From positions 72,361 to 136,360 of the forward strand of contig CASETE010000013.1 of assembly GCA_949290785.1 (NCBI GenBank): 64,000 nt of DNA, read 5' to 3'. The DNA comes from an uncultured Pseudomonadota bacterium (GTDB lineage Bacteria > Pseudomonadota > Alphaproteobacteria > Rs-D84). The notes under the pieces were generated by a model. It was not told the origin of the DNA. It was given only the letters and a program-made list of their open reading frames with translations, and searched no databases. How positions within the stretch are numbered: the first letter of the stretch is position 1; each line of letters begins with the position of its first letter. Below are positions 3,718 through 61,212 of this stretch, one piece after another. Position numbers and translations under genes: made by a program.

Positions 3718-3728
3718 GATATTTGTAT

Positions 3729-8929: not shown

Positions 8930-8965
8930 GGTATCTTAGTAAAAGAGTTTGAAGGAGTGAAACAA

Positions 8966-17880: not shown

Positions 17881-18426
17881 TTAAAAATTTATGGTGTACC
17901 CCATGCCTATAAAATTCTGCCCAGAATTTGATTCTGTTAACGTGCCGTTTGAAAAATGTCTTATGAATATTTCAATCGCGTTTTTTTGTGAAATGTGCAA
18001 CCCGACGAAAATCTTTTGACCGAATGTAAATTTAGAACTGATTCTGTCCGTCGTTGCTGACTTTATGTATGCGCCAAGGGACGCGCCTGTATAGAATTTG
18101 TCGTTGGCGTATAATATGACGTCTTCTGATATACCAAGAATAATATGTTGGTTATATTTACTAAATGCACCTATGCCTTGGGCGGTTAGTACTTCAATGT
18201 TTTGCCTGCCGTCCAGACCGAAAAAAGTGTTCCCTTGGCTATATTGAATTTCAAAAACATATAAGTTTTCCAGTTTGTCGCGCAGGGATACGCCTGGATA
18301 CAAAGATACTTGGTGCTTTTTGTCATTAAACAGTGTATTAGTTGTTGCTTTTGATTGAAAGGTTGTAAAAATTAAGACAAATATTGATAAAACGATAATG
18401 AATAGTATGTTCCATATTTTACTCAT
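17881..18426 (-). CDS. acyloxyacyl hydrolase / PagL-like lipid A deacylase (outer-membrane beta-barrel)
   Basis: N-terminal hydrophobic signal, alternating beta-strand pattern, H-x-S-N-G motif (IRHFSNGT), C-terminal INF. Confidence 0.55.
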   Translation of the reverse strand: MSKIWNILFIIVLSIFVLIFTTFQSKATTNTLFNDKKHQVSLYPGVSLRDKLENLYVFEIQYSQGNTFFGLDGRQNIEVLTAQGIGAFSKYNQHIILGISEDVILYANDKFYTGASLGAYIKSATTDRISSKFTFGQKIFVGLHISQKNAIEIFIRHFSNGTLTESNSGQNFIGMGYTINF

Positions 18427-18445
18427 ACCGAACTCCTTCCTTGGT

Positions 18446-18976
18446 TTAAAAGGTTGTATTAAAATGTACGTTTATTGATTGTGCGTCCGCACTGATGTTT
18501 ACGTTCGTTCGTTTGCTTACAAATATCCACGTCATAGCGCTGCTGATTGCGGCGCCGGCAAGTACGTCGTGCAGGTGATGTTTGTCCGCATAAATCCTTG
18601 AAAAGCCCGTAAATGACGCTAATAAGTAAGGTACGATGGCTTGTTTTAGTCCGTATCTTTTGTGTATAAACGTTGCGCCGGAAAAAGCCGCGGCTGTGTG
18701 TCCGCTGGGGAAAGAGTTATCGTCGCTTTTATCGGGTCGTTCTTCTTTTATTAAAGTTTTTAATCCCAAGACAGTGGTTTCCATCGCCAGAAAAGACGCG
18801 GAAAATTCCAAAGCACCTTGATAGTCTGTTTCGTTCATTGCCATACCGAAAGCGTATGCGGGAACTATGACCTGCATATAGTCGCCAATTTCTTCTATGC
18901 CTGGGCCGGCATAGGTCGGGATACAACGCTGGAAAACGACAAAAAATACGGCGGTCGCTTTGTAAAAGTTTGTCAT
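18446..18976 (-). CDS. PAP2-family phosphatase (membrane)
   Basis: Three PAP2 motifs: KEERPD, PSGHTAAAF, SRIYADKHHLHDVLAG. Start moved to ATG 18976 (AAGGA RBS); the track extension to 19087 has no support. Confidence 0.8.
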   Translation of the reverse strand: MTNFYKATAVFFVVFQRCIPTYAGPGIEEIGDYMQVIVPAYAFGMAMNETDYQGALEFSASFLAMETTVLGLKTLIKEERPDKSDDNSFPSGHTAAAFSGATFIHKRYGLKQAIVPYLLASFTGFSRIYADKHHLHDVLAGAAISSAMTWIFVSKRTNVNISADAQSINVHFNTTF

Positions 18977-19328
18977 TGTAATATCCTTTTGATTAAAAAA
19001 ACACCTACTGAAAGTAGGCGTCGGGAAGTTAATCAGTCTGATATTACAAAGACCTCGTTGCTTTCCCTGTTCGGTATTGTATGGCAAACGACTTCCCGAC
19101 TTTTATATATCGGGACTGAAAGTGTCAATAATGCAGTTTCTGCATCAGTAATATCAGGGTGATTAAGCCCTTTTATCTACTAACAGTATGCTGACCCTAT
19201 TTTTATATAGGGATAATATTAATATAAACGTTTTATCGGTTTAGTCAATGTGATTATGTAGTCTTTTTTTGTATCACGTGACATTTAACAATTTGACATT
19301 GCTTTGCGGCGGGGATAATATATGTTGT

Positions 19329-28236: not shown

Positions 28237-28354
28237 TTATACCCTTGCTTTATTTAAACGATTTTAGTATAAATTTTACTGAACTGCAAGAATATATACT
28301 TTTCTTTATTCTGCAAACAGTGTATTGTATAGGTTAAATACGGGGGATTCTGAT

Positions 28355-30280
28355 ATGGACATTACACAAATTCTGTTAATTGGCGGCGGCGTTTTGGCAG
28401 GCTTGTTATTTATTACATTGATTGCTTTGTTTTTCGTTTCAAGACGTTCGCAAAAAGTGATGGAATCTTTGTTGTTATTGGTGACAAAACCAGAGCGTGC
28501 GAAAATTCAGGATGCTGCGCGCGTCTTGCAGACAATTCTGTCGGACGAACTATTAAAAATAGAATCTAATTTTCAAAATATTAAAGATACCTTGAATGCA
28601 CAGATTGTAACCGCAAATGAACTGAAACAAAACCTTGCAGAACAAAATTCTGCACTGTTGGCAACCACAGAAGATGTTACAAAGAAATTGGCGGTTATGT
28701 CACAAAGGCTTGATAACACGGTTGCCGGGTTAAAGTCGGTTGTTGAATCAAACGATTGGCAAGATGTTGAATTATCTACCGACAGATTTAATGCAACCGT
28801 TAACGACTTGTTAGAAAAAATAAACACAACAAATGCAGAAGTTTCTGAAAAAGTGTCGGGCATTCAAGAAAATATAAACACATGGGTAGAGTCCAGCAAC
28901 GCGCTTTCAGAACGTTTACGCGGTGATTTTGATACAAACGAAAAGCAGATGCAGACTATAAACGCTGAATACGAAACAATGCAAAACAAATTGACGGAAT
29001 TAAATAAAGCCGTCGCTGATGGATTTGAAAATGTAAAAAGTTCAGCTGCTGGTTATTCAGAAATCATGAAACAAAATAATAAAGACTTAGACGAACATCT
29101 AAATAAAATGGATACGTTTAGTAAATTGTCAAAAAAGCAATTAACAAACCAGATGAATACTTTGACGAATACTGCAAATGTGGTGGGCGGACAGGTTCGT
29201 TTGGCAGAAACGTCAATAGAAATGCAAACAAGAAAATTGACAGAAGCGGTTGAAAATTTAATATCTTCGGCAACCGCAACGGAATCGTCTGTGCGTACCT
29301 TGTCTGGTGAATTGGCAACTTTGACTAACCGGTTTAACGGTGAAATAAAAGAATTCGCAACAAGTGTGGTGACAGAGTTAAAAACTGTATCTGGCGTTGC
29401 AAATACAACCCTAGAGAATACAAAAACTGCCGCTGGTGCTTTTTCCGAATCTGTTAAAGCAATGGCAACAGGTGTTCGCGAGACATTGATAGAAATGAAT
29501 ACCGCGCATACCCAATTGTCAGGTCAATCTGCAAATCTTATAAAAATGTCTGCAGAAACGACCGCACAGTTACAACCTTTATCAGAGTTGATAGAAAAGT
29601 ATTATTCTGCCCTGCCCGATTTATCACAAAGTTCTGTTACAACTGGTGAAACGCTTGAAAAAATAGTTGCTTCGTTAAATGAAAAAATCGCTTTGATGAA
29701 AACAACGGTGTCTGAATCTACAGATGCAGTTACGGAATCGGCTGCAAAATTAGAAAGCCTGGCCGGTCAATCGCGTCAACAAATGATTGACCTTATGTCT
29801 GATTATTCTAAGGCAGTAAACACTATGCAGACATTGAATAAACAGATGATGGTGGCGCGTGCTACTGCCCCTATGGACGCAATAAGTACAACGCCAGGAA
29901 CATCTTTCGGACGCGTCAGCAGCCAAGATTTTTTGAAACAAAGTGAACGTATGTTTGCTCAATTACACGAACAGTCTTTGGATTTAACGCGTGCAATTGG
30001 TGCCGATATTCCAGACGTTGTTTGGAAAAAATACCATGCTGGCGATAAAACAATCTTTTCAAAATGGTTGGCTAAAATGTTGGGTGCGGCCGATAAAAAA
30101 AGAATCCGAGACATATTAAAATCCGATGCAGTATTTCGTTCTCAGGCGACGCAATTCGTTCGCAGTTTTGATAAAATATTGACTGCTACACAACAAGCCG
30201 ACAATTCTGACAAATTATCGGCTACACTGATAAAAACTGATTTAGGACAGATTTATATCTCATTAAAGGGACATATGTAA
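28355..30280 (+). CDS. membrane-anchored long coiled-coil protein with conserved C-terminal domain
   Basis: ATG 28355. One N-terminal TM span (ILLIGGGVLAGLLFITLIALFFV). About 480 aa of heptad-like Gln/Glu/Leu/Thr-rich sequence. C-terminal DVVWKKYHAGDKTIFSKWL...DLGQIYISLKG block. Confidence 0.65.
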   Translation: MDITQILLIGGGVLAGLLFITLIALFFVSRRSQKVMESLLLLVTKPERAKIQDAARVLQTILSDELLKIESNFQNIKDTLNAQIVTANELKQNLAEQNSALLATTEDVTKKLAVMSQRLDNTVAGLKSVVESNDWQDVELSTDRFNATVNDLLEKINTTNAEVSEKVSGIQENINTWVESSNALSERLRGDFDTNEKQMQTINAEYETMQNKLTELNKAVADGFENVKSSAAGYSEIMKQNNKDLDEHLNKMDTFSKLSKKQLTNQMNTLTNTANVVGGQVRLAETSIEMQTRKLTEAVENLISSATATESSVRTLSGELATLTNRFNGEIKEFATSVVTELKTVSGVANTTLENTKTAAGAFSESVKAMATGVRETLIEMNTAHTQLSGQSANLIKMSAETTAQLQPLSELIEKYYSALPDLSQSSVTTGETLEKIVASLNEKIALMKTTVSESTDAVTESAAKLESLAGQSRQQMIDLMSDYSKAVNTMQTLNKQMMVARATAPMDAISTTPGTSFGRVSSQDFLKQSERMFAQLHEQSLDLTRAIGADIPDVVWKKYHAGDKTIFSKWLAKMLGAADKKRIRDILKSDAVFRSQATQFVRSFDKILTATQQADNSDKLSATLIKTDLGQIYISLKGHM

Positions 30281-37487: not shown

Positions 37488-37662
37488 AATCCTTTTTATT
37501 TGCTTAACTACTATATTATTTATATCTTAGCATTTTATCAAGAATAAAGTTGTTTCCATATATAAACATTTTTTTCGTATTAAGAAAGCATACCTGTTTA
37601 TGCGTATCTGCCGCGAGCGTTATAATATAATCATAACAAACTTAGTAAAAAGGAGAGAAAAA

Positions 37663-38415
37663 ATGTGCGAAATTTGTGGACACAATCACATACCAACAAT
37701 GCCCTTGATAGGCGATAAAGCACCGGCATTCAGCGCAAATACAACCAATGGTAATATAAATTTTCCTGATGACTATTCAGGTAAATGGGTGATTCTGTTT
37801 TCTCATCCGGCAGATTTTACCCCGATATGTACAACAGAGTTTATGACCTTTCAAAGCATGATACAAGACTTTAAAAAATTAAATACGGAAATTATCGGGC
37901 TGTCTATTGGTACTCTGACTGGGCACCTTGCTTGGATACACGCGATTAAGAATATTGAATACAATGGTTGGCATGATATGAATATAACCTTCCCCATTAT
38001 TGACGATATGAATATGCAGATTGCAAAACAATACGGTATGTTACACCCAAACGCGTCAGACGGAAAAACCGTTCGCGCTGTTTTTATTATTGACCCCAAC
38101 GGTATAATAAGAACGATTTTGTATTATCCTTTGACAACCGGCAGAAACTTTGAAGAGATTAAACGTATTTTAATAGCCTTGCAGACAACTGATGCATTTC
38201 AAATCGCTACGCCGGCGGATTGGTATCCTGGCGATGATGTTGTCGTGCCTGCCCCCAGCACAACGGACGATATGATAAAACGTCTAAACAGACACGATAA
38301 AACGTTAGATGTAAAAGCATGGTTCTTGACTTTTAAAAAATTGAAAGAAAACGATATTTATACCAAGTTAACAACCGGACCTAAAAAAAACGCAAAAAAA
38401 GAAATAACAAAATAA
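37663..38415 (+). CDS. peroxiredoxin (Prx6-like)
   Basis: ATG 37663 follows AAGGAG. WVILFSHPADFTPICTTEF peroxidatic Cys motif. N-terminal CEICGH extension and Lys-rich tail. Confidence 0.88.
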   Translation: MCEICGHNHIPTMPLIGDKAPAFSANTTNGNINFPDDYSGKWVILFSHPADFTPICTTEFMTFQSMIQDFKKLNTEIIGLSIGTLTGHLAWIHAIKNIEYNGWHDMNITFPIIDDMNMQIAKQYGMLHPNASDGKTVRAVFIIDPNGIIRTILYYPLTTGRNFEEIKRILIALQTTDAFQIATPADWYPGDDVVVPAPSTTDDMIKRLNRHDKTLDVKAWFLTFKKLKENDIYTKLTTGPKKNAKKEITK

Positions 38416-40188: not shown

Positions 40189-41436
40189 TTATTTACTGAT
40201 GCAGTTCGCAAACGATTGAGCCACAAACGATGTTTCTATACTGCTTAGAGTTGCAACCGGTATGATGAAGCACCGTGAACTGTCACGAATAATAAACACC
40301 TTGGTGCCACGTTTGTATGCTGTTTGCATGTCGTCCATTTGCGCGCTGGTCAAGAAAGCATTTTGTGTTGTTGCAGGGTTGGTCAGGCCAGCTTGAACGA
40401 CTTGGAACGCTGTGTTATAGTCGTTTATTTCAGATAAAGACGTAACTTCCATATAAACGCTCCAATTTTCATATGGATTTTCTGTGGTTTTTGTTGCAGT
40501 TGGGAATGCCACGCCTGTTGCCAATGCTGCCGCCGTTTGTAACGTAGTCGGCTCAGATGAGTTTGAAGTAGGATGAGATACCGTGTTTAATTGTAGATTA
40601 TCACCACATGCCGTATTCATTCTATTTACATAACTGGCAACGACCCCGTCAACTGCGGCTTGCCAATCTTCGCTCTTTTTATTCAAGTCCAGATTTACAA
40701 TTTTTTCCGCCCAACCCCATATGTTAGCGCCGACATTGCCGGCATTTGCAAATCGCGTAACCATTTCAGCAGAACCACCAGGAACACCTGCCCCACACGC
40801 GTCTGTTAATTGTGACGTCAACATGCTGCTGGTTTCATTACCATAAGCCAATGCAACTGCCTGACAGGCCAATGCTGCTTCTAATTCTTGGCGGCGTTGT
40901 ATGCACAAATCTGAACGGGACTTGGATAATTTATCTGCCATGTTCGCCATAGACAAATAAGACATAACTTCTTGTTGAACATAAGGTAAACATAATCTTG
41001 CAGCTGTATTCATTCCGCCAGAACCAGTTCTGGTGTTAACGTTGTATTGCGGCAACAAGACGCTTGTATCTTTTTGAATGCACAACAAAGTATAGTTATA
41101 CAGTTCGTTTTCTGTTATATATTGGCATCTGCCAGAAGTCTGACCTGGTAAAACTGTGACGTCACCGCAATATTCTGATAAGCAATTGTAAATTCTTTCA
41201 CGGCACGCTGAATCAACATCCGGTTGCGTAACCATATAATAAGTATTGCGTTGATTCTGAACATAGGCGTTCGCCAGCCCTTGATTACCACGAAGTCCGT
41301 TTGTCGTTGTGGGCGTGGTTACAGAAACATTTCTTGATAAATCAGATGCACCAACAGTACCGGCAGAAACGGCCATAGCATCTGCTGCGCCAAAACTTAT
41401 TAATAATAAACTTGCCAGAAAAGCGGTATTTTTCAT
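40189..41436 (-). CDS. secreted protein, paralog of the 1234-3717 product N-terminal region
   Basis: Signal peptide MKNTAFLASLLLISFGAADA/MA. LSRNVSVTT then ACRERIYNCLSEYC (41167-41208), parallel to VSRNAVSTT and ACREAYATCMDQFC in ORF 1234-3717. Confidence 0.7.
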   Translation of the reverse strand: MKNTAFLASLLLISFGAADAMAVSAGTVGASDLSRNVSVTTPTTTNGLRGNQGLANAYVQNQRNTYYMVTQPDVDSACRERIYNCLSEYCGDVTVLPGQTSGRCQYITENELYNYTLLCIQKDTSVLLPQYNVNTRTGSGGMNTAARLCLPYVQQEVMSYLSMANMADKLSKSRSDLCIQRRQELEAALACQAVALAYGNETSSMLTSQLTDACGAGVPGGSAEMVTRFANAGNVGANIWGWAEKIVNLDLNKKSEDWQAAVDGVVASYVNRMNTACGDNLQLNTVSHPTSNSSEPTTLQTAAALATGVAFPTATKTTENPYENWSVYMEVTSLSEINDYNTAFQVVQAGLTNPATTQNAFLTSAQMDDMQTAYKRGTKVFIIRDSSRCFIIPVATLSSIETSFVAQSFANCISK

Positions 41437-44076: not shown

Positions 44077-44772
44077 TTAAAACTTATATCGCAAAGACAA
44101 TATAAATTCATGAAATGGTTGATAATCTAATTCTACGTCTGTTTCCGTCGTAGCAGTTCTGGCAATTTCATGCGATATATCGTCTGGCATGCCAACGAAT
44201 CTGTATTTTAAATCTATCATCCAATTATCAGTAACAGCATAAGACACACCGGCCATTATATTATACATAAATCCTAACTCTGAAAACTTTATATCCAGCG
44301 ATTGTGCTGCGTCAGACCGAACGTTTAATTTGAAGTCTGTATACCCCAGACCAAAACCAAGTCCAACGTACGGAGTAAAACCTGTGCCGGTGGCAAAATC
44401 ATAATACATGTTTGCCATCATCTGATAAAAATTGTTTCTTTTCCAATCAAATTCAGAGTCTACATACGCGTCCCTGCCCTTAGAATCTGCGTGTAGATAC
44501 TTATAAGAAAAAGAAAGTTCAGCGCGAACGTTTGTATAAAAATTGGCACCATAACCGATATTAAGACCAAACTCATCATACTTGTCTTTTGATAGTTTTA
44601 TTACGGTATCAATGTCTGTTAGTTCGTTATCTGTTTTTATATGTTGTTTCGTTTCACCGAAACCGTATAAACCACCAACAGAAACGTATTGATTTTTCCA
44701 ATACAAATCTGACGCATATGAATTACTACAAAGTAAAACCATGGCGCCACCTAAAAACATTATTTTTTTCAT
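44077..44772 (-). CDS. outer-membrane beta-barrel protein (OmpA-like/OmpW-like porin family)
   Basis: Signal peptide MKKIMFLGGAMVLLCSNSYA, alternating amphipathic strands, C-terminal LRYKF. Confidence 0.75.
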   Translation of the reverse strand: MKKIMFLGGAMVLLCSNSYASDLYWKNQYVSVGGLYGFGETKQHIKTDNELTDIDTVIKLSKDKYDEFGLNIGYGANFYTNVRAELSFSYKYLHADSKGRDAYVDSEFDWKRNNFYQMMANMYYDFATGTGFTPYVGLGFGLGYTDFKLNVRSDAAQSLDIKFSELGFMYNIMAGVSYAVTDNWMIDLKYRFVGMPDDISHEIARTATTETDVELDYQPFHEFILSLRYKF

Positions 44773-44872: not shown

Positions 44873-45502
44873 TTATTCTTCAATGTTAGAATATTCGCAA
44901 AAGCCTTCATTTGTATCACACCGAGAAATCGTGCCTTCGCTGATGAAATATCCCTGTGGATGCAAGCATGCAGGGCATACTTTTGGCGCTTCTGTACCAA
45001 TGTGCCACATACCACAATTTGTGCAACGCCACATAACGATTTTATCTTGTTTGAATAAAGTACCGTTTTCAATCGCGTCTATTAACGCACGGAAACGAGA
45101 TTCGTGATAGCGTTCCGCATAACCAATATTCTTTAAAATAGAAGCAATTGCATCAAAACCTTCTTGCGCAGCAATCTGTGCAAATTTTGGATACATAACT
45201 GTGTTTTCTTCGTGTTCGCCGTATGCTGCTGCTTGTAAATTTTCTAAAGTAGTACCAATTTTACCGGCAGGATATGAAGCCGTTATTTCTAAATCGCCGC
45301 CTTCCAAAAACTTGAACAAACGAGATGCGTGTTCGCGTTCTTGTTCCGCAGTTTCTAAAAATATTTTAGAAATCGCTTGGTAACCTTCATCTTTCGCCTT
45401 TGAAGCAAAGAAGCTATAACGATTGCGAGCCTGAGATTCCCCGGCAAATGCAATTAACAAATTCTTTTCGGTTTGGGTACCTTTTAATGATACTGTTGCC
45501 AT
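44873..45502 (-). CDS. rbr: rubrerythrin
   Basis: ATG 45502 follows AAGGAGAA. Di-iron ferritin-like motifs (GESQARNRY, EQEREHA, EHEENTVMY, AERYHESRF) plus a C-terminal rubredoxin-like CTNCG...CPAC. Confidence 0.88.
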   Translation of the reverse strand: MATVSLKGTQTEKNLLIAFAGESQARNRYSFFASKAKDEGYQAISKIFLETAEQEREHASRLFKFLEGGDLEITASYPAGKIGTTLENLQAAAYGEHEENTVMYPKFAQIAAQEGFDAIASILKNIGYAERYHESRFRALIDAIENGTLFKQDKIVMWRCTNCGMWHIGTEAPKVCPACLHPQGYFISEGTISRCDTNEGFCEYSNIEE

Positions 45503-45590
45503 TATGTTTTCTCCTTTATATATCTGATTGTTAATTTGTGGTCTGAATGTTATCAAAAAACATTTCAAAAAGCAATTTTATTATACGAGG

Positions 45591-47331: not shown

Positions 47332-49089
47332 ATGAAACAATATATTTTACCTTTTCGTGATTTGGTCGTACACCCTGGTCTGACTGTGCCGGTGTATATT
47401 GATAACCCAATGTCTGTTGCCTGCATAGAAAGCGCGTCTGTGGTCGGGCAAAAGTTGGTTTTGACGCCACAACATAGTTGGGCATATCCGACGTCTGCCG
47501 ATGATATATATAAAGTCGGCACAATCGGCAACGTTACGCATGTATTACGTATGCCGGATGGCGCGCTACACGTAATTCTTAAAACAACAGACGCCGTTAA
47601 ATTAAGCGATATCAGCGTTAACAACGGTTTATTCAGTGCAAACGTAACTCCTATTAGATTTTTTAATGATGACAAAAGCGAACAAACGCTTGCTTTACGT
47701 GATAAGGTCGCTGAAAACCTGCAGTTATTATCAGTCGCCAGGAAATTTAAACTTGATAAATTACGTTCAATAATACAAGGATATCCATTGCCTGCCTTTA
47801 TAGACTATGTAATGCAAACAACTGGCATGGATACAGATGATGCTGTCAAGGTTTTGATAACTACTTCTTGGCGAAAAAAATTAATGATATTGCTGGAACA
47901 AATAACTTTGATGGCAGAAACCGCAAAGATAGAAGATTCTATCAATAAAAGAATTCATCAACAAATGGAAAACGGTCGTCGCGAGGCCATATTACAAGAA
48001 AAAATGCGCGCGATACAGCGTGAAATGGGCGAAGATAGCGAAGAGATGGATACAGAAAACATGCGAAAGCGCATTGTTAACTCTGCAATGCCCGCCGAGG
48101 CCAAAGAAAAAGCGTTGTCAGAATGGAAACGTATGCGCAGTATGTCGCCAATGTCAAACGAAGGCGGTCTGTTAAAAACATATTTAGACGAGTTGTTGTC
48201 TATGCCGTGGGGCAAATCTGACAAAAACAAAATAGACTTAAAAACTGCACGCAACGTTTTAGACTCGCAACATTCTGGTATGCAAGGCGTAAAAGAAAGA
48301 ATTTTAGAACATATCGCCGTAATGAAAAAAACAGGCGGCAACCAGGGCAGTATTTTATGTTTTGTTGGTGCACCTGGCGTTGGGAAAACTTCGTTATGCA
48401 AATCTATTGCGGATGCCTTGGGACGTAAGTATCAGCGAATTTCACTGGGTGGCATTTCTGATGAGGCGCATTTCCGCGGTCACAGAAAAACGTATATAGG
48501 CGCACAAACCGGACGTATAATGGACTCATTAAAACGGTGCAAGTCAAACAACCCTGTAATTGTTTTAGATGAAATAGATAAAATGGGGCGTGATTGGCGT
48601 GGCGACCCAGAATCCGCATTGTTGGAAATTCTGGACCCGGAACAAAACAAATCTTTCCGCGACCATTATTTAGAGGTAGATTTTGATTTGTCTAATGTGT
48701 TATTCATAGCAACTGCAAATAGTTTGAATATGTCCAACGCATTAAAAGACCGTATGGAAATCATAGAAATTCCGGGATACAACGAAGATGAAAAAGTGCA
48801 GATTGCGCGCGAACATTTGATTGCGCGTGCCGCCAGGGATACAGGATGGAATCCTAAAAACATCACGTTGGGCGACAATGCAATAAGGCACATCATTCGT
48901 AACTACACAAACGAAGAAGGAGTGCGTGAATTACAGCGTGAAATTACTGCGATTTTGCGTCGCTCGTTATTAGAGCATGATGGAGAAGATGTAAAAACTA
49001 ACTTTACACCTAAAAAGATAGACGAATTATTGTCTGCCAGAAAACCCGCAGGATTTTCAAAACGCATAGGGTTCGGCGTCAGAGTTTAA
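47332..49089 (+). CDS. Lon-like AAA+ ATPase lacking the C-terminal S16 protease domain
   Basis: Lon N-domain (LPFRDLVVHPGLTVPVYI). Walker A GAPGVGKTS, Walker B VIVLDEIDK, LDRMEIIEIPGY, EEGVRELQREI. Stops at aa 585 (RIGFGVRV*), and tsaB begins 19 nt later. Confidence 0.8.
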   Translation: MKQYILPFRDLVVHPGLTVPVYIDNPMSVACIESASVVGQKLVLTPQHSWAYPTSADDIYKVGTIGNVTHVLRMPDGALHVILKTTDAVKLSDISVNNGLFSANVTPIRFFNDDKSEQTLALRDKVAENLQLLSVARKFKLDKLRSIIQGYPLPAFIDYVMQTTGMDTDDAVKVLITTSWRKKLMILLEQITLMAETAKIEDSINKRIHQQMENGRREAILQEKMRAIQREMGEDSEEMDTENMRKRIVNSAMPAEAKEKALSEWKRMRSMSPMSNEGGLLKTYLDELLSMPWGKSDKNKIDLKTARNVLDSQHSGMQGVKERILEHIAVMKKTGGNQGSILCFVGAPGVGKTSLCKSIADALGRKYQRISLGGISDEAHFRGHRKTYIGAQTGRIMDSLKRCKSNNPVIVLDEIDKMGRDWRGDPESALLEILDPEQNKSFRDHYLEVDFDLSNVLFIATANSLNMSNALKDRMEIIEIPGYNEDEKVQIAREHLIARAARDTGWNPKNITLGDNAIRHIIRNYTNEEGVRELQREITAILRRSLLEHDGEDVKTNFTPKKIDELLSARKPAGFSKRIGFGVRV

Positions 49090-51396: not shown

Positions 51397-51473
51397 GGGT
51401 TAGTAGCTCAGTTGGTTAGAGCGGAGCGCTCATAACGCTTTGGTCGTGGGTTCAAGTCCTACCTAACCCACCA
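51397..51473 (+). tRNA. tRNA with CAU anticodon (elongator Met or lysidine-modified Ile2; not distinguishable by eye)
   Basis: GGGTTAGTAGCTCAGTTGGTTAGAGC...GAGCG-CTCATAA-CGCTT...GGGTTCAAGTCC...CTAACCCACCA. Confidence 0.88.
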
Positions 51474-51486
51474 CTTATAAAAACAT

Positions 51487-51512
51487 TCACGCAATTTGCG
51501 TGATTTTTTTTT
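51487..51512 (+). terminator. intrinsic terminator after the tRNA
   Basis: TCACGCA-ATT-TGCGTGA hairpin followed by T9. Confidence 0.75.
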
Positions 51513-51541
51513 GTTAATTTTAGTCTCGGACATTTTTTCTC

Positions 51542-51571
51542 TTGCACTGGGTAGGCGTTTTTTTCTAAGAT
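51542..51571 (+). promoter_or_regulatory. candidate promoter of the giant Cys-rich gene
   Basis: TTGCAC (51542-51547), 18 nt, TAAGAT (51566-51571). RBS AGAGAGGAAG precedes ATG 51594. Confidence 0.3.
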
Positions 51572-51593
51572 AATATACAAAAGAGAGGAAGAA

Positions 51594-54500
51594 ATGGAGA
51601 AAATCCGCAGTTTTCTTGGCGTTTTAGTGTCATTATTTGTTATTTCTATACCCGGCAAAGTGTTGGCCGCAGACGTTTACGTTTGTAATGAGTTGATAGA
51701 ATATGTAGAATGTAACGCAAATTTTTATTTGGCTGGTAACACTTGCGAAGCATGCCCATCTGGTCAATACAACTTTGGTAATGGTAATTCTCAAAATTGG
51801 CAATCTACGACCCCAGACGCGAACTCCAACGCGGCTTGTGAATGTCCAGAATTCTGGGCGGCTCAAGGCGGCGGAACCCAAGTTATATATGGTGAAGTGT
51901 GCGTTCCACAAACCATAGAATGTAAGCCGGGTGAATACTTTGATACAGGAACAAAAAAATGCACGATTTGTCCTGCTGGCTATTATTGCCCTGGCGGCGA
52001 AATACAGCCCGCAAACGTTACTTTAAATGGCGGCAAAATAAACTGTCCAAAAGGTTATCCTTACTCCGAAACGGGCGCAAAAGCCATTACGGAATGCTAT
52101 CGCGGCGAAACAGAGGTAAAATGGACCGGCGTTCAAAAAGAATGTAAATTACCAGAAAATTGTGCGTCTGTAAAATGCGAAGAATGCTCTTTGCCCAACT
52201 GCAAATTCAAAATATATTGTAATGCTGACGGCCTAACGGATGCACCTTTGCCGCCATGCGACGAACCCTGCGAGCAAAAAATTGTTTATCTTGAAGCTAA
52301 TCCGGGGGCTTATACTGTTGGAACAGAGGGTTGTAAAATGTGCCCTGAAAAATATCAAGATGGACCAGGCGTAACAAGCGAAGCCGATTGTATATATTAT
52401 GAAACAAAATATGGTAAACAGTTAGATCCAGCATTGCCAAGCGGGTGTACCGATATGAAGTTGGGTACTTGTACACCAAAAACATGTCAAGTCGTGCATA
52501 CATACGGCGGTGAAACAACGCCCTGCACTCCACAAGACTGTACAAAACCAATAACCAGCGTGACAGCGGCTGAAAATAATTATGCTTCCGGTACTTCTTG
52601 TATTGCTTGCGAAGCAGGATATACCGCCCCCGCTGGTGCAACAGATCCAAAAGAATGTACCAAACAATGTTCGGTTAAATGTACAAAACCAACTTGCCCA
52701 GAAAACAGTGAAAACTGCGAAATCACAGAATCTTTCATAGTTGGTAAAGAAAACCAAGTTGATAAGGTATGCGATGCGGTGCCGCAGGTCTGTGAAATGA
52801 CATTTTCTTGTAAAAAAGGATATAAAGAATATGAAGGGCAATGTATACCAGAAACTTATACCGTATCATATAATTGCGGTACAGGCGGTGGCGTAGCACC
52901 TGGTGGTTCTTCACAGCAATATGGCGGTCAATATCAAATCGCTGCAAATACATGTACTAAACCAGGATTTAATTTCGTTGGCTGGGGTGATGGCACAAGC
53001 GTTCAACAACCAGGAAAAATTACATGGAATTATACTTCTGACATAACGTTTACTGCACAGTGGGAACCTTGTCCGAACGATCCTAGTGCTGTCGGCACAT
53101 GTGGTTGTGCAGAAAAACAATATCCAAACGGTAATGGGTGTTCTGACTGCGTTGTCTCTTGTCAAAGCGAGGCAGAATTCAATCAAGGCAGTTATAATGT
53201 ATGTAATTCAGAAACAACAAGCCGTTGTTACAGAAATTGTACTACATCAGACGTTTCGCACTCTTCCGCTGTAACAGGAACAATTACAAAAGGCGGAACG
53301 AACACCTGTAAGGCAAGTGCTTGTTTGGCGAATTATTTCTTGGATAACGGTCAATGCATGGCTTGTGTAGAAAACGCTACTTGTCCAGGCGGAACGGAAT
53401 CATTTAAATGTAATACCGGATATCACACTTCCGCTGACGGCGACAGTTGCGAACCAGACGAATATAAAATAACTCTGAACAAAAATGGTGGTACGGGCGA
53501 CATTAATGGATATACCGGTACAACAGACGCGGTACAGACTTGCCAATACGGTGTACTGTGCTATCTGCCGACCGAAGGTCTAACAAGAACAGGATATGAA
53601 TTTACCGGCTGGGGCGACAATGCAGGTTGTACAAGCGGTGTATTACAAGACACATTTACATCCAGCAAAACCTTATATGCTTGCTGGTCTCAACAAACAA
53701 CCCAATGTCAAGCGGGCAAATATTATGACGGTGAAAACCACATAGAATGTCCTTCTGGTAAATTCTGCCCGGGCACTGGCTCTGCAAACATTGGTCAACC
53801 GGGTTGCGCGTCCGATTGTCCGATAGGCTATGACGGTTCAACACCTGGCGCAAGTGCAGCCACTGCCTGTTACAAAAACTGTGGGGGCAAATCTATTACA
53901 GGCGGTACGGCAACGGTTGTAGCGCCAAAGGTATTCTATAACGGTTCATCATATCCAGCATGTACATATAATGTTACATGTAACGAAGGATATGTGGCTG
54001 CTGGTCAAGGAACCGCAGGCGCAACCTGTACGAAGTGTCAAGATGGAGAATACTGCCCTGGCGGCTCTGGTGAAAGCCCAGAGGATTGCCCAGCAGGCTC
54101 GTATTGCGAGGAAGGCATTAAAAAAGATTGCCCTGTTGGCGGTACGTCACAATCAGGTGCCGGTTCCATTAACGAATGCTATAAGGTATGTCCGCCTACC
54201 CTAGAAATTGCAAACGGTCAGGGCGTATCAACAGGGAACCAGTATTATGACGGTTCTGTATATCCAGAATGCTTGTTTAACGCGAATTGCGATGAAAATT
54301 ATGTCGCGATAAACAGCCCAAGCACGAATCCTGCGTGTATATGGGGCGACCCAGGCGACTGTCCTGTTGGGTTCTATTGCCCAGAAGACGGCAGTGGTCC
54401 TATTCCGTGCCCAGACGGTGGTACATCATTGGCGGGTTCAACAGCAGTTACACAATGCTATAAAATATTTGACCCGTATTCAGAGTTTCAAAATGGCGTT

Positions 54501-57500
54501 GCTTCTGCGAAATGTTACTATATAGAACAAACATCAAAATATGAAAGATGCAGCATTCTGGAAGTACAAAGTTGTAAAGCAGGCTATTGGTATGCAACGC
54601 CAAACGCATTCTTGTGCAGCGGTACGGAAAGTGGTTATTACAGCCCTGAAAACGATATAATACAAACGGCTTGTCCGACAGACCCAAGTGGCGGCGCTGT
54701 TGAATCATCAGAATACGCAGACAGTTATACAGACTGTTATAAAACATGCACCATAGAGGTTCCAAATTCTACATCCGTTGCGGCTGAAAACAATACCGTT
54801 TATGGAATTAGCGCTGATGCTTATGCGGCCTGCTCTTTTGCGGTTACGTGTAAAACAGGTTATACCGTCGTTGCAAATAATACAGAAGCACCTTCTTGTA
54901 AAGCAAATGAATATACGGTTATACTTGACAAGAACGGCGGCAGCGGTTCCGTCCCTGCAAGCGTAACGTGCACTTTTGATAGCGGCAGTTGCGAATTACC
55001 GTCAACAACTGGTTTAACGAAATCGGGTTATACAGTTGTTAACAGATGGTGCTCTGATGTAAATGGCGGGACACCTTGTTACACGGCAGGTTCAACGGTT
55101 TCTACTAACATATCTGCAACGGGTCAAAACACAACTTTGTATGCGGTATGGACGCCCAATGTATATGCCATACAACTTGACCACCAAAATGCTGATGTCA
55201 CAGGCACGCCAAATACAGCGTATTTAAAGTACGCAACAGGTTGGTTTAGCGACGCATCCGCGGCTTCGCCGTTAACGAATATGACGCGTATACCAACCAA
55301 GACAGGTTATGAGTTTGCCGGTTATTACAGTGCCGTCTCTGGTGGTACACAGGTGATAAACGCCACTGGTTTATTCCAAACGGCAACAAATGCACTGACG
55401 TTTACTGTGGCACCTGCCACAATCTATGCCAGATGGGCAGCGGGCACGACAACTTGTGATGCAGGCTCTTATTACCCAGGAACGGGCACTTTGTGTTCTG
55501 TCTGCACTGAAAACAATTATTGCCCGGGCGGCAGTTTCGCAACCGACAGCGGTCAAGCCGAAGGTTTACATGCTTGCCCAAGCAATGGTACCTCACCAAG
55601 CGGTGCCGCAAGCGTCAACGAATGTTATAAAACAGACTTAAATTATACTGCGACGCACGGCTCAGGAACGCAAACTTGTTATTACAATCCGACAGAATTT
55701 GATTATACGTCTGCATGTCAGGATAAAAAAATAACGCTTTGCCATGCTGGATATTATTTAGCAGAAACGTCGGACACAGACTGTAGCGCAGTTGGTATCG
55801 GGTATTACAGTCAAGGTACGGGCACTGTACGTACACAATGTCCAAATAACGGTCTGACGGAATCTGATACTTCCACAATGATTCAAGACTGTTATAAAGA
55901 CGGTGTACCGTATACAGCGGTCTATGGTTCCGGCACACAAAGATGCTTCTATTCAAGCGGCGTTGGGGCAAGTGCTGTTTATCAACGCGACTGTGACACA
56001 AAAGTTATTAACAGTTGCTGGGGTGGATATTGGCTTGAAAATCCGTACGATACAGACTGCGTTCCTGTAGGTAAAAATTATTATAGTAACACAGGGGACA
56101 CAGAACGCTTTGCGTGTCCAAGTAACGGAAAAACAGAAAGCAATACCGCAGAAGAAATTAAACAGTGTTACAAAGATGGGCTGCCATATACCGCGGCACA
56201 GCATGGAACAGGTGAATACTTGTGTTATTACACCAGCGGTACAGGTGACAGCGCAATATATGCTTCTAGTTGCGAAACACCGACAATGACCAGTTGTGAC
56301 GCAGGATACTACTATAATAAAGTACAAAAAGAAGATGACTGTATCGCTGTCGGAATTGGTTATTACAGCCCCGACATTGAAACGTCTCGCTCACAGTGTC
56401 CAGACAACGGCTTGACAGAGACAACAACCAGTGCGGCGATAACAGACTGCTATAAGACAGGTTTGTCATGTACTATAACCAACGGTCAAGGTACCCAAAC
56501 ATGTAATTATAACCCAGGTTCAAGTAATTATTCGGGTTCTTGCCGGCCGTGCGTTGTAACACAATGCGACGAAGGGTTCTCGTTGGTTGACAACACCTGC
56601 ATAACTTGCCCTGCCGGCAGTGTATGCTACGACGGAAAACAACAAACTTGTTCAGAACTGACCGGCGGTCAATATACAGAATCTGACCCAGGCACAACCG
56701 ATGTAGCAAAATGTTACAAAAACTGTACTGTGGCAGAAAATGCAGTATCTATGTCAGGACGCGATTACTATACTGCACCAGACACTTGCTCTATAGACAA
56801 ATGTATATCAGGTTATGTATTAGACAATAACAGCTGTACACAATGTCCGTCTGGTAGTTATTGCGATGGAATGTCTGAAAATGCTTGTACCGGTTTAGGT
56901 GACGGATCTTGGGCGAATTCTTTGCCTGGCGCAAGTGATGCAAATAGTTGCTATAAAACTTGTGAAACTCGCCCTGTAATTAACGGTACCGCGATACCAA
57001 TCAAAGACACTGTATTCTATCCAGAAGAATGTGAGTTCCGTGGCGAGTCAGATTCCGGAAATCCATGCGAAATTATAGATGGTGTATGTGTAGAATCGTC
57101 GTGCAGCCCGGATCAGGAAATGAAAAACGGGGCATGTGTACCTTGCGATCGTGAAAATGCGCTGTCTTATAAGCCAACAGGTAATTGTCAGGTTGCATCT
57201 TGCATATACGGATATCATCCGCGTGGCGATATGTGCGAATATGATATAAAAGAATGCAATATACCAAACGCTGTGTATGCAGAACAAAAGTGGGATAATA
57301 AATTACAAGCCTTTGGACCTTGCAAAATATTGGAATGCGACGACAGATATCATTTGGCGTCTAATGCATGTGTATCTAACATTCAGCAATGTAATGTAAA
57401 TAACGGCGTTGGATTTAAAGAATGGGATTCTGCTAAGAATACTTGGGGCAAATGCGTGGCAAATGAATGTGACCCAGGTTATACCAGCGACCCATCTGAA

Positions 57501-57758
57501 ACAGATGATAAGGTAAGCCAATGCGGTGAATGCAAAAATAAATACAGCAGCCTTGGTGAAATAGCTGTCAGCAGTTATGTGCGCGGTTGTGAAATAGCAT
57601 CTTGTATGTATCAAGGCGAATTGTATAACTTGGAAAACAACGAATGCGTTCCAATTTGCCCGCAAGAGATGTATGAAGACGAAACCGGAACTATGGTGTG
57701 GGATAAGAATAAGAAAAAGTGCGTCCGCACATGTAAAGACGGTTATACAATGTGGTAA
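51594..57758 (+). CDS. giant secreted cysteine-rich modular surface protein
   Basis: Uninterrupted 2054-aa ORF. Signal peptide MEKIRSFLGVLVSLFVISIPGKVLA/AD. Recurrent CxxCPxGxYCxGG and CPxGGTSxxGAxSxxxCYK frameworks. Four Listeria-Bacteroides-type repeats. Has its own promoter-like and terminator elements. Confidence 0.85.
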   Translation: MEKIRSFLGVLVSLFVISIPGKVLAADVYVCNELIEYVECNANFYLAGNTCEACPSGQYNFGNGNSQNWQSTTPDANSNAACECPEFWAAQGGGTQVIYGEVCVPQTIECKPGEYFDTGTKKCTICPAGYYCPGGEIQPANVTLNGGKINCPKGYPYSETGAKAITECYRGETEVKWTGVQKECKLPENCASVKCEECSLPNCKFKIYCNADGLTDAPLPPCDEPCEQKIVYLEANPGAYTVGTEGCKMCPEKYQDGPGVTSEADCIYYETKYGKQLDPALPSGCTDMKLGTCTPKTCQVVHTYGGETTPCTPQDCTKPITSVTAAENNYASGTSCIACEAGYTAPAGATDPKECTKQCSVKCTKPTCPENSENCEITESFIVGKENQVDKVCDAVPQVCEMTFSCKKGYKEYEGQCIPETYTVSYNCGTGGGVAPGGSSQQYGGQYQIAANTCTKPGFNFVGWGDGTSVQQPGKITWNYTSDITFTAQWEPCPNDPSAVGTCGCAEKQYPNGNGCSDCVVSCQSEAEFNQGSYNVCNSETTSRCYRNCTTSDVSHSSAVTGTITKGGTNTCKASACLANYFLDNGQCMACVENATCPGGTESFKCNTGYHTSADGDSCEPDEYKITLNKNGGTGDINGYTGTTDAVQTCQYGVLCYLPTEGLTRTGYEFTGWGDNAGCTSGVLQDTFTSSKTLYACWSQQTTQCQAGKYYDGENHIECPSGKFCPGTGSANIGQPGCASDCPIGYDGSTPGASAATACYKNCGGKSITGGTATVVAPKVFYNGSSYPACTYNVTCNEGYVAAGQGTAGATCTKCQDGEYCPGGSGESPEDCPAGSYCEEGIKKDCPVGGTSQSGAGSINECYKVCPPTLEIANGQGVSTGNQYYDGSVYPECLFNANCDENYVAINSPSTNPACIWGDPGDCPVGFYCPEDGSGPIPCPDGGTSLAGSTAVTQCYKIFDPYSEFQNGVASAKCYYIEQTSKYERCSILEVQSCKAGYWYATPNAFLCSGTESGYYSPENDIIQTACPTDPSGGAVESSEYADSYTDCYKTCTIEVPNSTSVAAENNTVYGISADAYAACSFAVTCKTGYTVVANNTEAPSCKANEYTVILDKNGGSGSVPASVTCTFDSGSCELPSTTGLTKSGYTVVNRWCSDVNGGTPCYTAGSTVSTNISATGQNTTLYAVWTPNVYAIQLDHQNADVTGTPNTAYLKYATGWFSDASAASPLTNMTRIPTKTGYEFAGYYSAVSGGTQVINATGLFQTATNALTFTVAPATIYARWAAGTTTCDAGSYYPGTGTLCSVCTENNYCPGGSFATDSGQAEGLHACPSNGTSPSGAASVNECYKTDLNYTATHGSGTQTCYYNPTEFDYTSACQDKKITLCHAGYYLAETSDTDCSAVGIGYYSQGTGTVRTQCPNNGLTESDTSTMIQDCYKDGVPYTAVYGSGTQRCFYSSGVGASAVYQRDCDTKVINSCWGGYWLENPYDTDCVPVGKNYYSNTGDTERFACPSNGKTESNTAEEIKQCYKDGLPYTAAQHGTGEYLCYYTSGTGDSAIYASSCETPTMTSCDAGYYYNKVQKEDDCIAVGIGYYSPDIETSRSQCPDNGLTETTTSAAITDCYKTGLSCTITNGQGTQTCNYNPGSSNYSGSCRPCVVTQCDEGFSLVDNTCITCPAGSVCYDGKQQTCSELTGGQYTESDPGTTDVAKCYKNCTVAENAVSMSGRDYYTAPDTCSIDKCISGYVLDNNSCTQCPSGSYCDGMSENACTGLGDGSWANSLPGASDANSCYKTCETRPVINGTAIPIKDTVFYPEECEFRGESDSGNPCEIIDGVCVESSCSPDQEMKNGACVPCDRENALSYKPTGNCQVASCIYGYHPRGDMCEYDIKECNIPNAVYAEQKWDNKLQAFGPCKILECDDRYHLASNACVSNIQQCNVNNGVGFKEWDSAKNTWGKCVANECDPGYTSDPSETDDKVSQCGECKNKYSSLGEIAVSSYVRGCEIASCMYQGELYNLENNECVPICPQEMYEDETGTMVWDKNKKKCVRTCKDGYTMW
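52856..53063 (+). repeat. Listeria-Bacteroides-type repeat 1 (protein-level)
   Basis: YTVSYNCGTGGG...TKPGFNFVGWGDG...ITFTAQW. Confidence 0.6.
53463..53687 (+). repeat. Listeria-Bacteroides-type repeat 2 (protein-level)
   Basis: YKITLNKNGGTG...TRTGYEFTGWGDN...KTLYACW. Confidence 0.7.
53868..56951 (+). repeat. array of 79-103-aa cysteine modules each closed by (E/D/Q)-C-Y-K (protein-level, diverged)
   Basis: The Cys of CYK falls at nt 53868, 54177, 54456, 54735, 55623, 55890, 56166, 56448, 56712 and 56949 (aa 759, 862, 955, 1048, 1344, 1433, 1525, 1619, 1707, 1786). Modules 1344-1619 align well (CYKDG-PYTA--GSGTQ-C-Y...C-AGYY...DC--VGIGYYS...CP-NG-TE). Confidence 0.7.
54912..55435 (+). repeat. 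Listeria-Bacteroides-type repeats 3 and 4 (protein-level)
   Basis: YTVILDKNGGSG...TKSGYTVVNRW...TLYAVW and YAIQLDHQNADV...TKTGYEFAGYY...TIYARW. Confidence 0.7.
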
Positions 57759-57766
57759 AACCCGAT

Positions 57767-57794
57767 GCCCCGATAACATATATCGGGGCTTTTT
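57767..57794 (+). terminator. intrinsic terminator after the giant gene
   Basis: GCCCCGATA-ACATA-TATCGGGGC 9-bp hairpin followed by T5. Confidence 0.75.
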
Positions 57795-57835
57795 ATTGAT
57801 AGATTTTTATAATAAACTTTGCTATCTATTATATT

Positions 57836-59940: not shown

Positions 59941-61212
59941 TTATAAAAATATGCGTCTGGCGTCATAGGCAAGCCCTAGCCCAACACTTGATAATTTATC
60001 ACTGGCAGAAATTTCTGCACCTGGGAAGAATTTGGCTGCAATATCATACACTCGCGGTACTTCGGTTGAACCACCCGTCAAGATTACTAATTCTATATGT
60101 TCTTTCTTTATACCCGCTTGTAACACACATTCTGATAAACGTTGTTCTATTTTTGCAACATCATTTGATATCGCCTTATTAAACTCTTCGCGAGTTATCT
60201 GCACAGACGGTTTGTCAGATATAAAATCTAAAACGCTTTCAAAACTCAAATCTTTTGACAATGCTATTTTTGTCTTTTCAACATAATCCAAATTTATATG
60301 CCCTAAGCCGTTTTGTATCACTTCATATAAACGAGCAAGTTTTTCCGGTTGTAACGCCCACGTCTGATAGCCTTTTACCAGATTTAACGTCTTATAATTA
60401 TAAACGTCATTTACCTGATTCCATGTAGACAGATTTATATAAATGCTATTCGGTATACTTAATACCTTGTCATAAACCTTGTAATCCGTGCCCATACCAA
60501 GAACCGGCATAAAAGAACTTAAAGACAAGTTCTTATCAAAATCATTTCCGCCAATTCTAACGCCTGTATTTGCCAAAACGTCTTTGGTTCTGTCCGCTTT
60601 ATTTCTGTTTCCTGGTGAAAGACGTATAACTGTAAAGTCCGAAGTACCACCACCAATATCTATAACGCACGCTAATTGTTCAGAGTTAATTTTTTGTTCG
60701 TGTGCAAAAGCAGCAGCTATTGGTTCATATTGAAAACAAACATTTTTAAAACCTGCCTTGTGTGCAATTCGTTCAAGTTCTTGTTGAGCTTTATCGTCTG
60801 CAGCTGGGTCATTATCACGAAAATGTACGGGGCGCCCCATAACAACAGATTCTACTGGCTCTTCTGCTGACGCGTCTATTTTTTGCTTCATATAAGAAAT
60901 GAAAGCGCCGATTATGTCATCAAATCTAACCATACGTCCGTTTATTTGCGTACTGCTGTCCATAAGTGGCGTCCCTAGAATCCTCTTCATGCTTCGCATA
61001 AAGCGACCGACCGTTTCAGAATTCACGTATTTTTGTTGGGCAGTTCTACCATAAAAAACTTCGCTTGATTTTTCAGGAAAATATAAAGCAGTAGGAATTG
61101 TGTTATGTCCGCTTTCTACATCAACCATCCTTGGGGCATTTCCATTAGTTATTGCAGCCGATGAATTACTTGTACCGAAATCAATACCCGCAACATAACT
61201 TGCCATAACCAC
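59941..61212 (-). CDS. Hsp70-family ATPase without substrate-binding domain (YegD-like)
   Basis: GIDFGTSNS, IDIGGGTSDFTV, LTGGSTEVP. 423 aa, actin-like ATPase fold only. Confidence 0.8.
   Translation of the reverse strand: MVMASYVAGIDFGTSNSSAAITNGNAPRMVDVESGHNTIPTALYFPEKSSEVFYGRTAQQKYVNSETVGRFMRSMKRILGTPLMDSSTQINGRMVRFDDIIGAFISYMKQKIDASAEEPVESVVMGRPVHFRDNDPAADDKAQQELERIAHKAGFKNVCFQYEPIAAAFAHEQKINSEQLACVIDIGGGTSDFTVIRLSPGNRNKADRTKDVLANTGVRIGGNDFDKNLSLSSFMPVLGMGTDYKVYDKVLSIPNSIYINLSTWNQVNDVYNYKTLNLVKGYQTWALQPEKLARLYEVIQNGLGHINLDYVEKTKIALSKDLSFESVLDFISDKPSVQITREEFNKAISNDVAKIEQRLSECVLQAGIKKEHIELVILTGGSTEVPRVYDIAAKFFPGAEISASDKLSSVGLGLAYDARRIFL

Follow-up and report, generated by a model that had tools for sequence, protein, structure and literature searches.

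A 64-kb stretch of DNA from an uncultured alphaproteobacterium of the order Rs-D84 (assembly GCA_949290785.1, contig CASETE010000013.1), referred to here as the window, carries a single gene that takes up about 0.7% of the genome, which raises the question of what its giant product is built from, to what it is related, and where it acts. Coordinates are positions in the window, and residue numbers refer to this giant protein of 2054 amino acids. A sequence-only reading had described it as a secreted protein in which Cys-rich modules are interleaved with Flg_new repeats, and this description was supported. By function class, the product is a variation on the theme of giant repetitive surface proteins, and what is new is a composition unusual for a diderm bacterium together with an undescribed C-terminal domain. 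Judged from sequence and gene order, it belongs as a positional orthologue to an extensive protein family specific to Rs-D84 (Candidatus Enterousia and its relatives).

The open reading frame (ORF) was found to be uninterrupted, as had been claimed, and encodes an acidic protein of about 215 kDa. Its sole hydrophobic segment in the hydropathy profile is the N-terminal Sec-type signal peptide that had also been proposed (MEKIRS / FLGVLVSLFVISIP / GKVLA-AD), which has basic residues in its n-region, contains no lipobox, and recurs across the family as MGKxRxFLGFF.... Cysteine makes up 167 of the 2054 residues, and the counted 8.13% agrees with the earlier estimate by eye of roughly 8–10%; the median for the long ORFs of the window is 1.3%. 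In a three-way alignment with orthologues at 54–63% identity, 163 of the 167 Cys residues were kept, compared with 44% of the other residues.

The ten CYK tripeptides listed in the sequence-only reading were confirmed at the exact residues (759, 862, 955, 1048, 1344, 1433, 1525, 1619, 1707, and 1786), and CYR occurs twice, at residues 168 and 545. By composition, 0.53 CYK would be expected, and 5000 shuffles yielded 4 at most. The spacings of 103, 93, and 93 residues in one block and of 89, 92, 94, 88, and 79 residues in the other define modules of about 90 residues, and each complete module has an even number of Cys. Block 1 contains type A modules of 103 and 93 residues (10 and 8 Cys) and a type B module of 93 residues (6 Cys), while block 2 contains type B modules of 89, 92, and 94 residues (6 Cys each) and type A-like modules of 88 and 79 residues (10 and 8 Cys). 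An Ephrin_rec_like-type unit closed by CYR (residues 113–168) lies inside the N-terminal Cys-rich region. Fragment-against-fragment BLASTP, which bore out the suggested internal periodicity, returned dozens of similar pairs, many with E values of 1e-10 to 1e-21. Because similarity at the DNA level is only motif-sized, the duplications are old; phase variation or recent expansion by means of DNA repeats was rejected on the same ground.

The modules share with ephrin-receptor-like and tumour necrosis factor receptor (TNFR) repeats the framework C-x2-C-P-x-G-x-Y-C ... C-P-x-G-G-x-S ... C-Y-K. Unlike ephrin-receptor-like repeats, they are two-part units of about 90 residues with a lineage-specific first half, and unlike Eph and TNFR proteins, they stand in a bacterial context with no kinase or receptor setting. 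The 48-position model PF07699 (Ephrin_rec_like, formerly GCC2_GCC3) aligned over its full length (1–48/48) with residues 113–168, 1386–1433, and 1571–1619 at 20.3, 17.2, and 20.4 bits, respectively, all below the gathering score of 23.1 bits. These sub-threshold matches were visible in segment scans, and PF07699 was not reported by the whole-protein Pfam scan. The same family was present in the precomputed Pfam annotation of several homologues, such as P0036 and P0054–P0061, and segment matches to DUF7631 and TNFR_ELAPOR1 were at noise level.

An AlphaFold2 model of residues 762–1050, comprising two type A modules and one type B module, showed a rod-like array of short β hairpins at high confidence (predicted local distance difference test, pLDDT, 93.2). 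The best match of this model in Foldseek was the mastigoneme protein MST1 (E = 9.8e-5, prob 1.0), and further matches were ELAPOR1, the ectodomains of EphB2, EphA2, and EphA4, and TNFR1; a profile search of the same residues against PDB sequences returned nothing at E ≤ 1. The modules are thus predicted to adopt an elongated β-hairpin fold of the Ephrin_rec_like or TNFR-like kind, in which the conserved Cys residues would form a disulfide ladder. Although Chlamydomonas MST1 (PDB 8wa2, 9b4h, 8tx1) is the best structural match, identity is only 16–17% with a template modelling (TM) score of 0.27. Its Sushi tandem resembles the cysteine-rich domain of ephrin receptors and stiffens an extracellular filament by a regular disulfide ladder (PMC10602792). 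MST1 itself has nine Ig domains, a glycosylated polyproline II (PPII) helix, and a eukaryotic secretory origin, and the match implies no homology.

The sequence-only reading had also likened the Cys framework to furin-like and EGF repeats and to the surface antigens of Giardia and ciliates. Its ephrin-receptor-like part stood, with the 17–20-bit matches and the AlphaFold2 and Foldseek results, and the other kinships did not. The segment scan gave no match to PF03302, the Giardia variant-specific surface protein (VSP) model, at E ≤ 10, none to PF01508 (Paramecium antigen) or furin-like models, and only noise for EGF_laminin (E = 0.09). Since CxxC is not enriched (14 observed, 13.5 expected), the resemblance to VSPs is one of composition. 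A VSP is recognized by a match to the model, frequent CxxC, and a C-terminal transmembrane segment with a CRGKA tail, and the giant protein has no C-terminal hydrophobic segment. Membership among Giardia VSPs or ciliate antigens was rejected on the Pfam matches, the CxxC count, and the transmembrane tail. What is shared, by analogy only, is the gut-lumen setting, a Cys-rich variable ectodomain, a conserved C-terminus, and paralogues.

Flg_new was the only family reported by the whole-protein Pfam and NCBIfam scans, with 68.2 bits over four stretches for PF09479 (cut-off 27 bits) and 37.3 bits for TIGR02543 (cut-off 20.95 bits). The four units suggested from the sequence were recovered at matching coordinates; three of them pass the Pfam cut-off, but the fourth is divergent and matched only in part (Table 1). 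Like the InlB B-repeat or Listeria-Bacteroides proteins (PF09479, TIGR02543), the giant protein has three units above the cut-off, and "InlB B-repeat-containing protein" is the sole database name for its family. Unlike them, it consists of Flg_new for only about 15% of its length, it has neither the leucine-rich repeat internalin domain nor the LPXTG, GW, or type IX secretion system (T9SS) anchoring of InlB-type proteins, and its host is a diderm alphaproteobacterium.

A further conserved region lies at the C-terminus. The run of short C...C..GY...C units that had been noticed there is real, but it is better seen as a discrete conserved domain of 266 residues made of about five units of about 45 residues, each of the form C-x4-C-x2-GY ... 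W-x6-[FW]G-x-C; of the last unit, the giant protein keeps only the first hairpin. Among 111 homologues, 69 contained the domain, which lay at the extreme C-terminus in 67 of them, and all 67 ended in C-x3-C-x2-G-[YF]-x2-W, with one extra Pro behind it in three. In an alignment of 31 sequences, 25 Cys, W120, and the terminal W were invariant. A profile of the domain was searched against 1.84 billion cluster representatives and matched 826 of them at E ≤ 1e-3 and 304 at E ≤ 1e-30, with lengths of up to 4444 residues. Among the 150 best of the 826 matches, the domain was C-terminal with few exceptions, the W-end motif was kept in 130 of the 151 proteins examined, and every named cluster member was an "InlB B-repeat-containing protein" from a metagenome-assembled genome (MAG) of Alphaproteobacteria or Proteobacteria.

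The AlphaFold2 model of the C-terminal domain was all β hairpin (pLDDT 91.1). The domain had no Pfam or NCBIfam match, its profile returned nothing at E ≤ 1 against PDB sequences, and Foldseek against PDB and BFVD gave nothing significant (best E values 0.015 and 0.008, TM about 0.1). The sub-unit of about 45 residues is without an entry in Pfam, NCBIfam, or PDB. The Rs-D84 giant-protein family was defined by an N-terminal signal peptide and a Cys-rich domain of about 266 residues at the extreme C-terminus that ends in C-x3,4-C-x2-G-[YFW]-x2-W, and the protein of the window, with its end CVRTCKDGYTMW, falls within this definition. The domain is conserved and family-defining, and we consider it the best candidate lead on anchoring or export.

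A core of about 100 residues of the same domain (profile positions 85–186) was also observed as 6–15 tandem copies in P0112, P0113, P0216, P0218, and P0242, whose remaining parts differ and include, for instance, FGE-sulfatase/DUF4215 or RCC1 repeats. Pfam scans of these five proteins left the tandem unit without a named domain, and it looks like a Cys-rich repeat of wider distribution that has so far escaped description.

The gene is embedded in a recurring order of Obg, tmRNA, the 585-residue Lon-like protein, TsaB, RimI, a PIF1-like helicase (−), tRNA-Met, the giant gene, an HI0933-like flavoprotein, and an S33 hydrolase, which was found whole or in part at seven of eight genome loci and additionally at L010. 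The tRNA-Met is placed in the same way in L001–L003, L005–L007, and L010. Relative to the closest relative, L001 (91% amino acid identity), the ratio of nonsynonymous to synonymous substitution rates (dN/dS) was 0.10 over the whole gene and 0.05 in the C-terminal domain, comparable with the 0.03–0.09 of the neighbouring genes. Residues 1–170 had a dN of 0.236 versus 0.015–0.075 elsewhere, a 3- to 15-fold increase, and the N-terminal Cys-rich region was only 31–50% identical to that of the orthologues. With its dN/dS of 0.10 and no difference in length from L001 and P0001, the gene was judged to be neither a pseudogene nor a spurious ORF. A genomic island, suggested by the adjacent tRNA and a slightly higher GC content, was likewise rejected, as both the flanking genes and the pairing with tRNA-Met persist throughout the order.

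At the same syntenic site, protein lengths range from 2054 to 3374 residues (P0039), and the bodies of the family members cover about 1200 to 3600 residues with differing module content, while the signal peptide, the first mature motif, and the 266-residue C-terminal domain are kept throughout. P0054 is encoded at another locus, directly 3′ of ybgC/tolQ/tolR-like genes. Constant ends, variable lengths, and paralogues indicate that module gain, loss, and shuffling together with paralogy drive this family. All homologues found were bacterial, and the close ones with a named source came from Alphaproteobacteria or Proteobacteria MAGs except for one labelled Lachnospiraceae. In the scan of species-representative genomes, the gene was detected in "uncultured proteobacterium" and Alphaproteobacteria MAGs, Candidatus Enterousia intestinigallinarum, and Candidatus E. 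avicola. A Hadza-gut MAG contig (L009, 10001–30134) encodes both P0054 (3377 residues) and a tandem paralogue of at least 3284 residues that runs off the locus; the Cys content of this second giant protein is 5.7%.

Upstream of the giant gene, every syntenic locus has a tRNA-Met and a hairpin terminator 120–170 nt away, a pairing that is kept order-wide. By its sequence, the terminator behind the tRNA-Met would isolate the giant gene as a transcription unit of its own. The promoter-like element of the sequence-only reading was corroborated as a phylogenetic footprint, since CTTGC-N17/18-CTAnnAT and the leader AAAAGAGAGGAA were invariant in the alignment of eight related loci; a scan with an E. 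coli-type consensus scored it below threshold and listed no promoter upstream of the gene. The element resembles the alphaproteobacterial consensus CTTGAC-N17-CTATAT. The strong terminator claimed behind the gene was recognized as well, with a 9-bp stem containing 6 GC pairs (57767–57789) followed by a T-run.

Known devices for secretion and anchoring were searched for, and the earlier statement that autotransporter, RTX, and LPXTG features are missing was upheld by Pfam and NCBIfam scans and motif searches. Neither a type V autotransporter barrel nor a two-partner secretion (TPS) domain was detected by Pfam or NCBIfam, and the C-terminal model shows Cys-rich hairpins instead. No GGxGxD motif was found by regular expression, which together with the Sec-type signal sets the protein apart from type I RTX adhesins. 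Regular expressions and hydropathy gave no LPXTG, PEP-CTERM, GlyGly-CTERM, or lipobox, the sole LPxT being internal at residue 1530, and an NCBIfam scan of 31 C-terminal domains returned no match to the T9SS C-terminal domain (TIGR04183 and relatives). The β-signal of an outer-membrane protein (OMP) was considered for the final ...DGYTMW but seems unlikely, since a barrel strand would not be expected to have this aromatic spacing (Y at −3 and W at 0) or to lie among Cys hairpins.

Giant adhesins such as the RTX proteins LapA and SiiE, type V secretion system (T5SS) adhesins, and LPXTG fibrillar proteins nevertheless share with the giant protein its size, a modular stalk, length variation among orthologues, and the pairing of a constant terminal region with a distal part that varies. 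Its Sec signal and its 8% Cys set it apart from adhesins of the type I secretion system (T1SS), and it carries no RTX, β-barrel, TPS, or sortase signal. T1SS substrates are typically poor in Cys and devoid of Sec signals.

We consider it somewhat better than an even prospect that the giant protein is a disulfide-laddered attachment fibre on the surface or outside the cell, with the C-terminal domain as a candidate anchor or sorting module. It would be exported by Sec, oxidised outside the cytoplasm, and folded into a long, stiff, disulfide-laddered rod of TNFR/ephrin-receptor-like modules and four Flg_new β modules. If extended, the rod would be some tens of nanometres long and at most about 100 nm, a rough figure from TNFR dimensions. 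Anchoring or sorting at the cell-proximal end would fall to the C-terminal domain, with the rapidly evolving N-terminal 170–400 residues or so as the distal tip exposed to ligands or immunity. Targets of attachment could be a partner cell, the surface of the host, or mucus, and the fibre would resist gut proteases. Speaking for such a fibre are the lone Sec signal, the conserved Cys with even counts in every complete module, the two confident hairpin models with the fold matches of the central modules, the Flg_new units, the selection pattern, the differing lengths at one conserved site, the paralogues, the terminal position of the C-terminal domain, the partner-dependent lifestyle proposed for the lineage, and the diderm envelope. 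The sequence features, their conservation, the synteny, the family size, and the models are shown by the analysis, whereas disulfide bonding, surface location, adhesion, the choice of anchored end, and the outer-membrane route are inferred. Much more tentatively, and with doubt on our part, the domain with its ...G-Y-x-x-W end might be the recognition or anchoring module of an undescribed route that places giant, periplasmically oxidised, Cys-rich fibres on the diderm surface, where they would tether genome-reduced Rs-D84 to the gut partner cell it lives off.

Several observations count against an attachment fibre. Once the signal peptide is removed, the count of Cys is odd, and the oxidation of 167 Cys in an anaerobe is unexplained because the lineage is reported to have no respiratory chains (PMC12306168). 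No Dsb or secretion gene was present in the window or beside the homologues examined, no transporter gene was conserved beside the giant gene at the loci examined, and no device for outer-membrane translocation or anchoring of the protein was identified. Conservation of the C-terminal domain fits a binding or polymerisation module as well as it fits an anchor. Finally, no description of family members came up in the searched literature on Enterousia, Rs-D84, bacterial GCC2_GCC3, and giant Cys-rich proteins of episymbionts.

The high and conserved Cys content in a gut-lumen organism, the variable body with a constant C-terminus and paralogues, and the fast-evolving N-terminus would also suit a protective coat resistant to proteases and bile, functionally VSP-like, with antigenic diversity generated by paralogues and shuffling. 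We judge this unlikely, as only one giant copy lies in the 64-kb window, DNA repeats and switching elements are lacking, purifying selection is strong across most of the length, and the protein shows no VSP or ciliate-antigen Pfam match, no CxxC enrichment, and no C-terminal transmembrane anchor. Family-wide conservation of both termini, the absence of a membrane anchor, and the filament protein MST1 as the best structural match (PMC10602792) would be compatible with a released, self-assembling, mastigoneme-like filament or matrix, polymerising head-to-tail or antiparallel through the C-terminal domain and the N-terminal motif. That Foldseek match is to a generic Cys-rich tandem at a TM of 0.27, however, Ig tandems and PPII elements are missing, and nothing points to polymerisation, so that such a filament appears quite improbable.

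An envelope-internal scaffold, situated in the periplasm or on the inner face of the outer membrane and never crossing the latter, would account for a Sec signal without any recognisable outer-membrane secretion or anchoring feature and without a dedicated transporter nearby. The size and predicted rod shape suit the periplasm poorly, Flg_new and TNFR/ephrin-type modules are generally typical of surface or extracellular proteins, and the variable N-terminus suggests exposure to the outside; we hold this placement to be quite improbable too. The sequence-only reading had further raised host mimicry and asked whether the nearest relatives are eukaryotic. The fold of the modules is predominantly eukaryotic, and an effector acquired from a eukaryote could act, for example, as a decoy for TNF- or ephrin-type ligands. 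It has the weakest support among the rivals, given that only bacterial relatives turned up and that the gene shows synteny and vertical inheritance throughout the order. No relative among eukaryotic sequences came to light, the close homologues with a named source are bacterial MAG proteins, nearly all from Alphaproteobacteria or Proteobacteria, the PDB sequence searches were empty, and the modules score under the Pfam threshold. With no sign of a recent eukaryotic origin, we regard mimicry as very improbable.

An attachment fibre would be of interest for the biology of the lineage. The genomes of Enterousia (order Rs-D84) are 0.75–1.0 Mb in size and encode no TCA cycle, no respiratory chains, and no standard uptake transporters; dependence on a partner has been proposed as their lifestyle (PMC12306168). 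Rs-D84, including Candidatus Enterousia, has genomes under 1 Mb, is widespread in animal and non-industrialised human guts, and is suspected to depend on partners, for which the giant family provides a concrete candidate for the partner-contact apparatus. The C-terminal domain defines a large uncharacterised family in this ecologically interesting uncultured gut lineage, with at least 300 clusters (50% identity) at E ≤ 1e-30 and members that each occupy 0.6–1.5% of their genome. It also poses two puzzles, namely how a diderm devoid of a respiratory chain oxidises about 170 Cys per molecule, and by which path a Cys-rich rod of 215 kDa that bears no known signal for secretion or anchoring reaches or crosses the outer membrane.

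Table 1. Features of the giant gene, its flanks, and one further envelope gene of the window
Feature	Residues	Position	Strand	Remarks
OMP β-barrel protein		44077-44772	−	
tRNA-Met (CAT)		51397..51473	+	ARAGORN, Rfam; immediately 5′ of the giant gene at every syntenic locus
Hairpin and T-run terminator after tRNA-Met		51487..51503	+	Terminator scan; hairpin kept at the same position in related loci
Promoter-like element		51541..51571	+	CTTGCA, 18 nt, CTAAGAT; conserved
Shine-Dalgarno sequence		51583..51589	+	GAGAGGA, within the invariant leader AAAAGAGAGGAA
Giant gene	1-2054	51594..57758	+	Single intact ORF, 2054 codons
Sec-type signal peptide (predicted)	1-25	51594..51668	+	Predicted cleavage between VLA and AD
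N-terminal Cys-rich region	26-420	51669..52853	+	Fastest-evolving part
Flg_new / InlB B-repeat unit 1	422-489	52857..53060	+	PF09479, 27.9 bits
Cys-rich linker	490-623	53061..53462	+	CYR at 545; self-similar to residues 1673-1760
Flg_new unit 2	624-696	53463..53681	+	PF09479, 39.3 bits
CYK block 1	700-1050	53691..54743	+	Half module, 2 type A, 1 type B
Type A module, N-terminal half	1051-1106	54744..54911	+	Self-similarity
Flg_new unit 3	1107-1185	54912..55148	+	PF09479, 27.8 bits
Flg_new unit 4, divergent	1191-1281	55164..55436	+	PF09479, partial, 18.5 bits, below cut-off
CYK block 2	1282-1788	55437..56957	+	Half module, 3 type B, 2 type A-like
C-terminal domain (266 residues)	1789-2054	56958..57755	+	Ends CVRTCKDGYTMW-COOH
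Intrinsic terminator		57767..57797	+	GCCCCGATA / TATCGGGGC then TTTTTATT

The remainder of the window, which has about 40% GC and an alphaproteobacterial two-piece tmRNA, describes the cell that carries the giant gene. Since it encodes PagL, a PAP2 phosphatase, an OMP β-barrel, and AmiC-AMIN, the host is a diderm with lipopolysaccharide. The PagL-like lipid A 3-O-deacylase lies beside the PAP2 phosphatase (17881–19087, −), and this pair suggests lipid A remodelling in a reduced genome. A rubrerythrin (44873–45568, −) and an AhpC/1-Cys peroxiredoxin (37600–38415, +) fit an oxygen-stressed anaerobe and bear on how extracytoplasmic Cys is oxidised.

Four other ORFs had no Pfam match. Two adjacent ones (1234–3717 and 3723–5015, both +) encode proteins of 827 and 430 residues with signal-peptide-like N-termini and Cys contents of 3.5% and 5.3%, respectively, and may be further lineage-specific secreted proteins. 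A 415-residue protein (40189–41436, −) has a signal peptide and 2.9% Cys, and a 651-residue protein (28325–30280, +) has a single N-terminal transmembrane segment and no Cys.

The Lon-like protein of the conserved gene order (47332–49089, +) comprises a LON substrate-binding domain, an AAA+ domain, and the Lon lid, and no S16 protease domain was detected in its 585 residues. The same length recurs in L002, L005, and L010, so that by sequence it looks like a conserved protease-less Lon-like ATPase of the lineage. In addition to a full DnaK at 8957–10858, the window encodes an Hsp70-like protein of 423 residues (59941–61212, −) that matches only the nucleotide-binding N-terminal part of the Hsp70 model.

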